Assembly: GCF_058153355.1 (NCBI RefSeq)
Contig: NZ_CM177019.1
Direction: 5' to 3' (one strand)
DNA: 64,000 nucleotides
Below the pieces are notes generated by a model, which made no database searches, was not told where the DNA came from, and worked only from the letters and a program-made list of their open reading frames with translations. Positions 22,407-23,261 of this stretch are shown piece by piece. A program made the position numbers and the translations under genes. The first letter of the stretch is position 1, and each line of letters opens with the position of its first letter.

Positions 22407-23261
22407 ATGTACATCATTTCAAGCAAAAACATGCTGAAAAAAGCCCAGTCAGAGGGATATGCCGTCCCTGCTTTCAACATTCATAACCTTGAAACTTTAC
22501 AGGTAGTTGTTGAGAGCGCTGCACAACTTCGCTCTCCCGTTATGCTGGCGGGAACACCGGGTACTTATCGTTATGGCGGCGTGGGAAGTTTGATTTCGTT
22601 AGTACAATCGCTGGCTCGCGAGTACAACCTACCGTTAGTCCTGCATCTCGATCATCATGAAGAGTGTGATGACATTTTTAACAAGGTCCGCGCAGGGATC
22701 CGTTCTGTCATGATTGATGGTTCCCATTTGCCATTTGAAGACAACATTGCGCGAGTGCAAGAAGTTACCGCCTTTTGCCATCGCTTTGATGTTAGCGTTG
22801 AGGCCGAGCTAGGGCGTCTTGGCGGTCAGGAGGACGATCTGCTGGTGGATGAAAAAGATTCAGCTTATACCTCACCAGCCGCAGCTGCAGAGTTTGTTCA
22901 ACGTACCCAAATTGACTCTCTGGCGGTAGCAATAGGCACTGCACATGGTTTATATGCGCATGAACCACGTCTGGATTTTGTGCGGCTGGAACAAATTCGC
23001 CAGCTGGTGGAAATTCCGCTGGTGTTGCATGGAGCTTCAGGCCTATCGGAACAGGACGTTCAGCTCTGTATTCGCCACGGTATTTGTAAAGTAAATGTCG
23101 CGACAGAATTGAAAATTGCGTTTGCCGATGCATTAAAAGGATATTTCTACAACAATCCAGCGGCAAATGATCCTCGTCATTATATGCAGCCGGCAAAGGT
23201 CGCTATGAAGGAAGTTGTAACCCGCATTATTGGCGTCTGTGGCAGTGAAGGAAAAATTTAA
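22407..23261 (+). CDS. Class II ketose-1,6-bisphosphate aldolase, GatY/KbaY (tagatose-bisphosphate aldolase)-like
   Basis: 284 aa; [30 protein letters not shown] and LVLHGASG metal/substrate motifs as in E. coli GatY/KbaY/FbaA class II aldolases; SD AGGA 6 nt upstream. Confidence 0.85.

Follow-up and report, generated by a model that had tools for sequence, protein, structure and literature searches.

TagY, a GatY-family aldolase without an adjacent Z gene in the D-tagatose island of Escherichia coli

A D-tagatose utilization cluster has been described in Escherichia coli Nissle 1917 (EcN) at the yhdT/accC site (Ha et al. 2022, iScience, PMC9720028), and its genes carry the names tagK-tagR and, divergently, tagY-tagA-tagB-tagC-tagD-tagE (Park et al. 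2025, Microb Cell Fact, PMC12226905). EcN without the six-gene operon, or without tagD alone, failed to grow on D-tagatose, and the six genes on a plasmid gave tagatose growth in K-12, B, and W strains; this plasmid-conferred growth was lost in K-12 ΔpfkA and kept in ΔpfkB (Ha et al. 2022). Induction of tagY, tagA, and tagB on tagatose exceeded 1000-fold, with tagY the most strongly induced gene of the operon, and the proposed route runs from tagatose import to tagatose-6-phosphate (TagD), tagatose-1,6-bisphosphate (PfkA), and, through an aldolase, dihydroxyacetone phosphate (DHAP) and glyceraldehyde-3-phosphate (Ha et al. 2022). TagR acts as a repressor that responds to tagatose, and the operon is also subject to catabolite repression (Park et al. 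2025). Here we analyzed a 64-kb stretch of contig NZ_CM177019.1 (RefSeq assembly GCF_058153355.1), hereafter the window, and in it the aldolase gene tagY at 22407..23261 on the plus strand.

The window is part of an E. coli chromosome that carries an accessory island of 8.5 kb between yhdT and accC. The EcN aldolase TagY (ECOLIN_RS18695 / HW372_RS02445, WP_000275540.1) is encoded at the same insertion site, in a cluster that agrees with the window in its eight genes, their order, and the regulatory elements. EcN TagY shares 97.5% amino acid identity with the protein of the window, and the seven substitutions (EcN to window) are S87C, T122A, R146L, R200L, H220L, R224H, and A265V. In a gene-by-gene comparison seven island proteins were 96.6–99.3% identical to those of EcN, the truncated TagB apart. 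Unlike EcN, the window has a minority, non-B2-type tagY allele and a frameshifted tagB. The gene and the cluster are thus already described and named. An earlier note on this DNA, made from the sequence alone, had the enzyme family and the absence of a Z partner gene right and missed that the locus is the D-tagatose (tag) cluster already published. Taken as a whole, the locus is very probably a D-tagatose island in which tagY is the first gene of tagYABCDE and the absence of a Z gene is a difference between lineages at one operon position.

TagY as a GatY-type class II aldolase

The tagY open reading frame (ORF) starts with ATG and has 284 codons plus a stop, and the strand opposite it is dense in stops. 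The predicted protein carries the motifs HLDHH (residues 80–84), AIGTAHG (175–181), and LVLHGASG (205–212). It matched the class II ketose-bisphosphate aldolase family PF01116 over its full length (E = 1.2e-99, residues 5–283 on profile positions 2–277 of 277). TagY passed the curated cut-offs of the NCBIfam GatY subfamily NF009374 (523.2 bits, cut-off 383) and of TIGR01858, the equivalog model for tagatose-bisphosphate aldolases (473.8 bits, cut-off 443.55), and failed the KbaY equivalog NF009375 with 376.2 bits, below the cut-off of 542. The closest solved structure was that of AgaY/KbaY (PDB 1gvf, E = 6e-104). ORF, motif positions, profiles, and structural match, well past what chance would give, all bear out the description in the earlier note of a GatY/KbaY-like class II aldolase of 284 aa, and together with the identity to EcN they assign to tagY the predicted product of a class II (Zn) D-tagatose-1,6-bisphosphate aldolase.

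The amino acid identity of TagY is 64.3% with K-12 GatY and 56.7% with KbaY; between GatY and KbaY it is 54.8%. Residues D82, H83, E134, E142, H180, H208, N230, and R257 (KbaY numbering) are identical in TagY and invariant in 37 aligned family members; these positions include the Zn-binding histidines and catalytic acidic residues described for 1gvf and FbaA. TagY also keeps 134 of the 155 residues common to GatY and KbaY (86.5%). In Z-less clusters the ratio of nonsynonymous to synonymous substitution rates (dN/dS) of tagY is 0.03–0.07, indicating strong purifying selection. Because of this selection and the retained catalytic and shared residues we regard TagY as a working enzyme, with predicted chemistry of the GatY/KbaY type.

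The closest named systems differ from the tag cluster in their operons. GatY of the E. coli gatYZABCD operon is likewise a 284-aa class II Zn aldolase, with presumably the same substrate and products. The TagY operon differs from it in having a transporter of the ATP-binding cassette (ABC) type, a tagatose kinase, a DUF4432 protein, control by TagR, and no adjacent Z gene, and TagY falls in a separate clade with 100% bootstrap support. KbaY/AgaY of the aga N-acetylgalactosamine cluster (1gvf) has the same metal and catalytic residues as TagY, with only 56.7% identity and a TagY score under the KbaY cut-off.

We placed TagY among its relatives with one scan of species-representative genomes, which returned 34 loci with relatives 40–94% identical; the sampling is biased by search patterns derived from the query. 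Neighbor-joining (NJ) bootstrap values were 100% for an Enterobacteriaceae TagY clade, 100% for an Escherichia subclade, and 96% for the aldolases linked to tagKTH. Within this biased sampling, the branches that order TagY relative to canonical GatY and to the Serratia/Budvicia aldolases received 18–48%, and the nesting of TagY relative to K-12 GatY, Serratia GatY, and the tagKTH-linked aldolases stayed below 50%. The phylogenetic placement suggested in the earlier note thus gave TagY a clade of its own, and not a firm position inside GatY. Five positions (153, 161, 188, 273, and 274) are specific to the TagY clade. We considered them as markers of Z status and rejected them: a plasmid-borne TagY copy beside gatZ has the same residues, so the five positions mark the clade and not the presence of Z. 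In the aligned aldolases we saw no sequence feature that tells those with a Z partner from those without.

Z genes in the window and in related clusters

The absence of a Z-type gene from the island, noted earlier, extends to the whole 64 kb: with K-12 GatZ and KbaZ as queries, tblastn in six frames found no homolog in the window (best E = 0.21), and none of the eight island proteins matched GatZ/KbaZ models. The window also lacks gat phosphotransferase system (PTS) genes and gatD; the neighbors of tagY are tagR/tagK and tagABCDE, not those of a gatYZABCD-type operon. For the relatives, the 10-kb flanks of each locus were annotated with tblastn and NCBIfam, and our statements on Z presence or absence there apply within 10 kb. 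The corresponding islands in E. coli E69, Enterobacter, Superficieibacter, and Trabulsiella likewise gave no GatZ/KbaZ gene. The full tag cluster with the DUF4432 gene last is present in E. coli E69, Enterobacter sp. ENT03, and Superficieibacter, and the three Trabulsiella loci and Enterobacter sp. BIGb0383 have the same cluster with tagD last, accC following directly in T. guamensis.

Serratia sp. H1w and Budvicia diplopodorum share the gene order of the window, with tagK-tagR divergent from the genes for the aldolase, sugar-binding protein, ATPase, permease, and kinase, and with gatZ as the last gene, where the window has DUF4432. Their aldolases are 71–73% and their transporter proteins 71–86% identical to those of the window. 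Both gatZ genes (15400-16653 in locus L011, Serratia; 15665-16918 in L015, Budvicia) are true GatZ equivalogs; they scored 761 and 753 bits, with the cut-off at 579. We rejected NJ bootstrap as evidence that TagY descends from these Z-linked aldolases, as support was only 31–41%; the common origin of the ABC-type clusters therefore rests on gene order and not on the aldolase tree. In the alpha/beta-proteobacterial version of the cluster the position corresponding to tagE is held by a gene for a tagatose-6-phosphate epimerase, and that of S. meliloti has been described as structurally similar to GatZ. The last position of the ABC-type operon thus varies by lineage and holds a tagatose-6-phosphate epimerase gene, gatZ, DUF4432, or nothing. 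Synteny, and not the tree, suggests the direction of the Z/DUF4432 change, and by the same reasoning the absence of Z would be a lineage-specific replacement or loss in a conserved cluster, not a gap in the pathway.

PTS-type clusters combine similar aldolases with other uptake genes. As relayed from Shakeri-Garakani 2004, the Klebsiella/Salmonella cluster gatY-tagKTH-gatZ uses a GatY-family aldolase for tagatose-1,6-bisphosphate, as is proposed for TagY, and differs from the ABC-type cluster of the window in that PTS-type uptake proceeds via tagatose-1-phosphate and a 1-phosphofructokinase-like kinase. Buttiauxella and Pseudocitrobacter have a tagK/tagR-like pair, the aldolase, and PTS-type tagKTH followed by gatZABCD, with Z present. 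Erwinia endophytica, Zophobihabitans, Enterobacter Ag1, and a Citrobacter have the same pair, aldolase, and tagKTH without gatZABCD and without Z. The tagKTH-type locus of Lelliottia has agaR-kbaZ 3 kb away, and Serratia silvae has a canonical gatYZABCD operon with Z present. The tagK-tagR-like pair thus stands divergent beside the aldolase in PTS-type clusters too (L012–L020, approximately 7800-9800), with 55–60% identity for the kinase and ~40% for the regulator. This arrangement suggests a core module of kinase, regulator, and aldolase with interchangeable ABC and PTS uptake modules. For EcN, tagK and tagR were concluded to have a limited role (Ha et al. 2022).

Fifteen Gilliamella genomes have gatABCD-gatR-lacC-aldolase and no Z. 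In these bee-gut bacteria (L022–L037, approximately 4700-10852) lacC is a tagatose-6-phosphate kinase gene by its score of 413 bits against a cut-off of 409.6. The order gatA-gatB-gatC-gatD-gatR-lacC-aldolase apparently encodes a compact, Z-less galactitol pathway with its own tagatose-6-phosphate kinase.

Two E. coli IncF plasmids, from Australia and Thailand (NZ_JBTZOT010000002.1 and LR890578.1), carry the order gatZ-like gene, IS1, TagY-clade aldolase, gatD-like gene in segments riddled with insertion sequences (L039 9900-13989 and L040 9912-13974). Identity is 68% (to GatZ) for the gatZ-like product and 58% for the gatD-like dehydrogenase. The plasmid aldolase is 91.9% identical to TagY of the window and 96.8% to that of E69, and nests in the Escherichia TagY clade. 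Nucleotide homology between plasmid and window covers tagY with ~50 bp upstream and ~30 bp downstream only.

The relation of TagY to Z proteins

For a near-identical cluster, published genetics showed necessity and sufficiency for tagatose growth, a requirement for TagD and PfkA, and repression by TagR. In the mechanism that we propose for the island, TagR would repress tagYABCDE with CRP as a predicted activator, TagABC would import D-tagatose, and TagD would phosphorylate it to tagatose-6-phosphate. Host PfkA would convert tagatose-6-phosphate to tagatose-1,6-bisphosphate, which TagY, as a Zn-dependent class II enzyme, would cleave to DHAP and glyceraldehyde-3-phosphate. That TagY itself is the cleaving enzyme, and how it relates to Z proteins, are the steps that we infer.

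The earlier note took it that a Y subunit is paired with a Z subunit. Brinkkötter 2002, the sole origin of this premise and relayed here through three secondary citations, is said to have found that GatZ and KbaZ are needed for full activity and in-vitro stability, which is not absolute dependence. GatZ and KbaZ of E. coli have been shown to be tagatose-6-phosphate/fructose-6-phosphate C4 epimerases in their own right, and the tagatose-6-phosphate epimerases of Agrobacterium and Sinorhizobium are cited alongside them. PDB searches placed AgaY/KbaY (1gvf) and GatZ (2fiq, 3txv) in separate entries, and the Y and Z searches returned no entry matching both. Since GatZ and KbaZ are epimerases and the Y and Z structures are separate entries, a Y protein without Z is less anomalous than it first seemed: the premise stands for full activity and stability as relayed, and is weaker than had been assumed.

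On this sequence and literature evidence we lean towards the reading that TagY needs no dedicated, co-regulated Z protein and would be functionally sufficient alone; host GatZ/KbaZ may stabilize it without being essential. We count for this reading that the Z-less tag cluster occurs in at least four genera, whose aldolases form the TagY clade with 100% bootstrap, and that GatY-family aldolases without Z recur in unrelated operon designs (the tagKTH-only loci and Gilliamella). Several observations weigh against it. The Serratia and Budvicia clusters keep gatZ in the aldolase operon, and the two IncF plasmids have a TagY-clade aldolase (92%) next to a gatZ-like gene. In the published work tagD was the only gene deleted individually and there were no enzyme assays, which leaves the role of TagY inferred, and the tag hosts EcN, K-12, B, and W were all reported with gatYZ/kbaYZ (Ha et al. 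2022). Because every tested host was so equipped, a borrowed Z, or cleavage by GatY/KbaY, may have operated in them. K-12 gatR is interrupted by IS3E, through which the K-12 gat operon may be derepressed. The need for PfkA also fits a route through a Z epimerase, in which tagatose-6-phosphate becomes fructose-6-phosphate; because fructose-6-phosphate also needs Pfk, the PfkA requirement alone does not prove the bisphosphate route. In the window itself the frameshift in tagB, if real and not a sequencing error, may leave tagatose uptake and the whole pathway defective in the source strain.

The readings weighed here are not all mutually exclusive. The earlier note had offered three, namely solitary action, a borrowed chromosomal Z subunit, and another ketose bisphosphate, of which the third is disfavored below. 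Both the stability and the activity of TagY might depend strictly on a chromosomal GatZ or KbaZ that it borrows, in which case the island would not be self-sufficient. A donor is nearly always available, with gatZ in 5003 of 5426 complete E. coli genomes (92%) and kbaZ in 5314 of 5426 (98%). The reported need of GatY and KbaY for GatZ/KbaZ, as relayed, points the same way, as do the retention of gatZ in the homologous Serratia and Budvicia clusters and the chromosomal TagY residues at all five clade positions of the IncF aldolase beside gatZ. We nevertheless think strict dependence unlikely. The 2002 claim, in its relayed form, concerns full activity and stability and not absolute dependence; Z proteins have an enzymatic role of their own; and the Z-less cluster is kept under purifying selection in several genera. 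Expression speaks against borrowing as well: K-12 gatZ and kbaZ adjoin DeoR-type repressor genes of their own systems (gatR and agaR), whereas tagY is under TagR and induced by tagatose more than 1000-fold through it, and there is no known mechanism of co-induction. A further variant has TagY free of any Z, with TagE (DUF4432), at the gatZ position, having taken over the Z contribution as a non-homologous replacement. This contribution could be stabilization of the aldolase or interconversion of a form of tagatose or tagatose phosphate; we see little prospect for this variant.

Two other readings question the task of TagY and not its partner. The earlier note allowed for a different ketose bisphosphate. 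TagY might act, for example, on sorbose-, psicose-, or fructose-1,6-bisphosphate, and GatY/KbaY would then cleave tagatose-1,6-bisphosphate. The island does have a second kinase gene, tagK, with no assigned substrate, and the TagY clade is distinct from canonical GatY and KbaY. Yet tagY heads the operon and is its gene with the strongest induction by tagatose, TagY passes the tagatose-bisphosphate aldolase equivalog, its active-site columns are identical to those of GatY and KbaY, and the same clade of aldolases goes with two different modules for tagatose uptake, the ABC type and PTS tagKTH. Because published genetics tie the cluster to D-tagatose via tagatose-6-phosphate and PfkA, and TagY retains the GatY/KbaY residues, we disfavor another substrate and consider it most improbable. 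TagY might instead be a redundant third copy, an island passenger dispensable in E. coli, with GatY or KbaY carrying the flux; E. coli already has two tagatose-bisphosphate aldolases, and no ΔtagY phenotype was reported in the published tag work (Ha et al. 2022). The low dN/dS and the intact frames across genera argue for a maintained function, and co-regulation with transporter and kinase gives tagY a distinct expression niche, which together make redundancy a rather poor prospect.

Island genes, control region, and lineage

On one side the island is flanked by acrF-acrE-acrS(envR)-yhdJ-fis-dusB-prmA-panF-yhdT and on the other by accC-accB-yhdH-csrD. Its GC content of 45.9% is below the 50.2% of the window, and its genes run tagK-tagR on the minus strand and tagY-tagA-tagB-tagC-tagD-tagE on the plus strand. 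The gene tagK (20269..21204, minus), of the 'reg' operon, encodes a PfkB-domain protein that is the second predicted sugar kinase of the PfkB family and 98.1% identical to EcN HW372_RS02435. Its longest ORF reaches 21279, and the start annotated in EcN and H1 gives 936 nt. The best NCBIfam model for TagK was tagatose kinase, with 346 bits under a cut-off of 420, and the protein resembles free-sugar kinases rather than the sugar-phosphate kinases of the 1-phosphofructokinase/LacC type. The gene tagR (21236..22066, minus) encodes a DeoR/GlpR-family repressor with HTH_DeoR and DeoRC domains, 99.3% identical to EcN TagR.

All published regulatory elements of the tag cluster are contained in the 340-bp intergenic region between tagR and tagY. 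The Preg -10 hexamer TATAGT (22085..22090, minus) is an exact match, as is the predicted CRP site TTCGA-N6-TCACG upstream of Ptag (22293..22308, plus). Ptag itself (22310..22336, plus) has the -35 element TTTTTA, one mismatch from TTTTTG in EcN, a 15-bp spacer, and an exact -10 element TAGTTT. The published transcription start site of Ptag, 64 nt upstream of tagY, maps to ~22343 in the window. It is overlapped by the TagR operator tagO1 (22338..22356, plus; CTTTCAAAATGAAAGTGAA), which has one mismatch to the published sequence, and the second TagR operator, tagO2 (22362..22380, minus), matches exactly.

Downstream of tagY on the plus strand, tagA (23297..24187) encodes the periplasmic sugar-binding protein of the ABC transporter (Peripla_BP_4; 99.0% identical to EcN) and tagC (25749..26738) its permease (BPD_transp_2; 99.1%). 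The D-tagatose kinase gene tagD (26760..27722), for the step to tagatose-6-phosphate, scored 413 bits with the NCBIfam TagKinase model against a cut-off of 420, and its product is 98.8% identical to that of EcN. The last gene, tagE (27719..28765), overlaps tagD by 4 nt and encodes a DUF4432, aldose-1-epimerase-like protein (PF14486, E = 2e-101; 96.6% identical to EcN), whose sole solved relative is the 'hypothetical aldose 1-epimerase' of PDB 3ty1 (E = 3e-29). One unproven idea is that TagE interconverts ring forms of tagatose, which would let a kinase that needs a free C6 hydroxyl use a mostly pyranose sugar.

The ATPase gene tagB (24248..25748, plus) is frameshifted. An extra T near 25659 (25657-25669), seen as GGTGGTTAATG in the window against GGTGG-TAATG in R32_14_1F and E69, shifts the frame by +1; the frame ends at 25669 and encodes 473 aa instead of 499, and the truncated TagB is 93.2% identical to that of EcN. 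tagB is intact in H1/R32_14_1F, E69, EcN, and EC42405. In the closest relative, E. coli EC42405, with 99.9% identity between its tagY and that of the window, it is tagE that is annotated as frameshifted (L041 12312-13363). Closely related members of the minority lineage have different island genes broken, a hint of decay or else of errors in sequencing.

As a single-copy gene, tagY was present in 1421 of 5426 complete E. coli genomes. The allele of the window had matches of at least 99% in 14 genomes, and most carriers have ~95% DNA identity to it. The tagY alleles of E. coli differ from each other to an unusual degree: the tagY DNA of the window is ~95% identical to the B2 majority allele and only 88.5% (dS 0.56) to that of E. 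coli E69 (L004 8406-9260), and the TagA–TagD proteins encoded next to it are 97–99% identical to those of E69. A divergent tagY beside conserved tagA–tagD points to mosaic recombination inside the island.

In published work the tag cluster allows roughly one in four sequenced E. coli, chiefly from B2 lineages with many extraintestinal pathogens, to grow on a widely used sweetener, and it has already been turned into a tagatose-inducible expression system. Our modest additions are the swap of gatZ and DUF4432, the tagK-tagR-Y module shared by ABC- and PTS-type clusters, the plasmid TagY beside gatZ, and the tagB frameshift. If TagY is indeed Z-independent, tagY alone could be a portable tagatose-bisphosphate aldolase for engineers, and a GatY-family aldolase that works without Z would help to show whether a Z protein serves as a subunit of the aldolase, as an epimerase, or in both roles.

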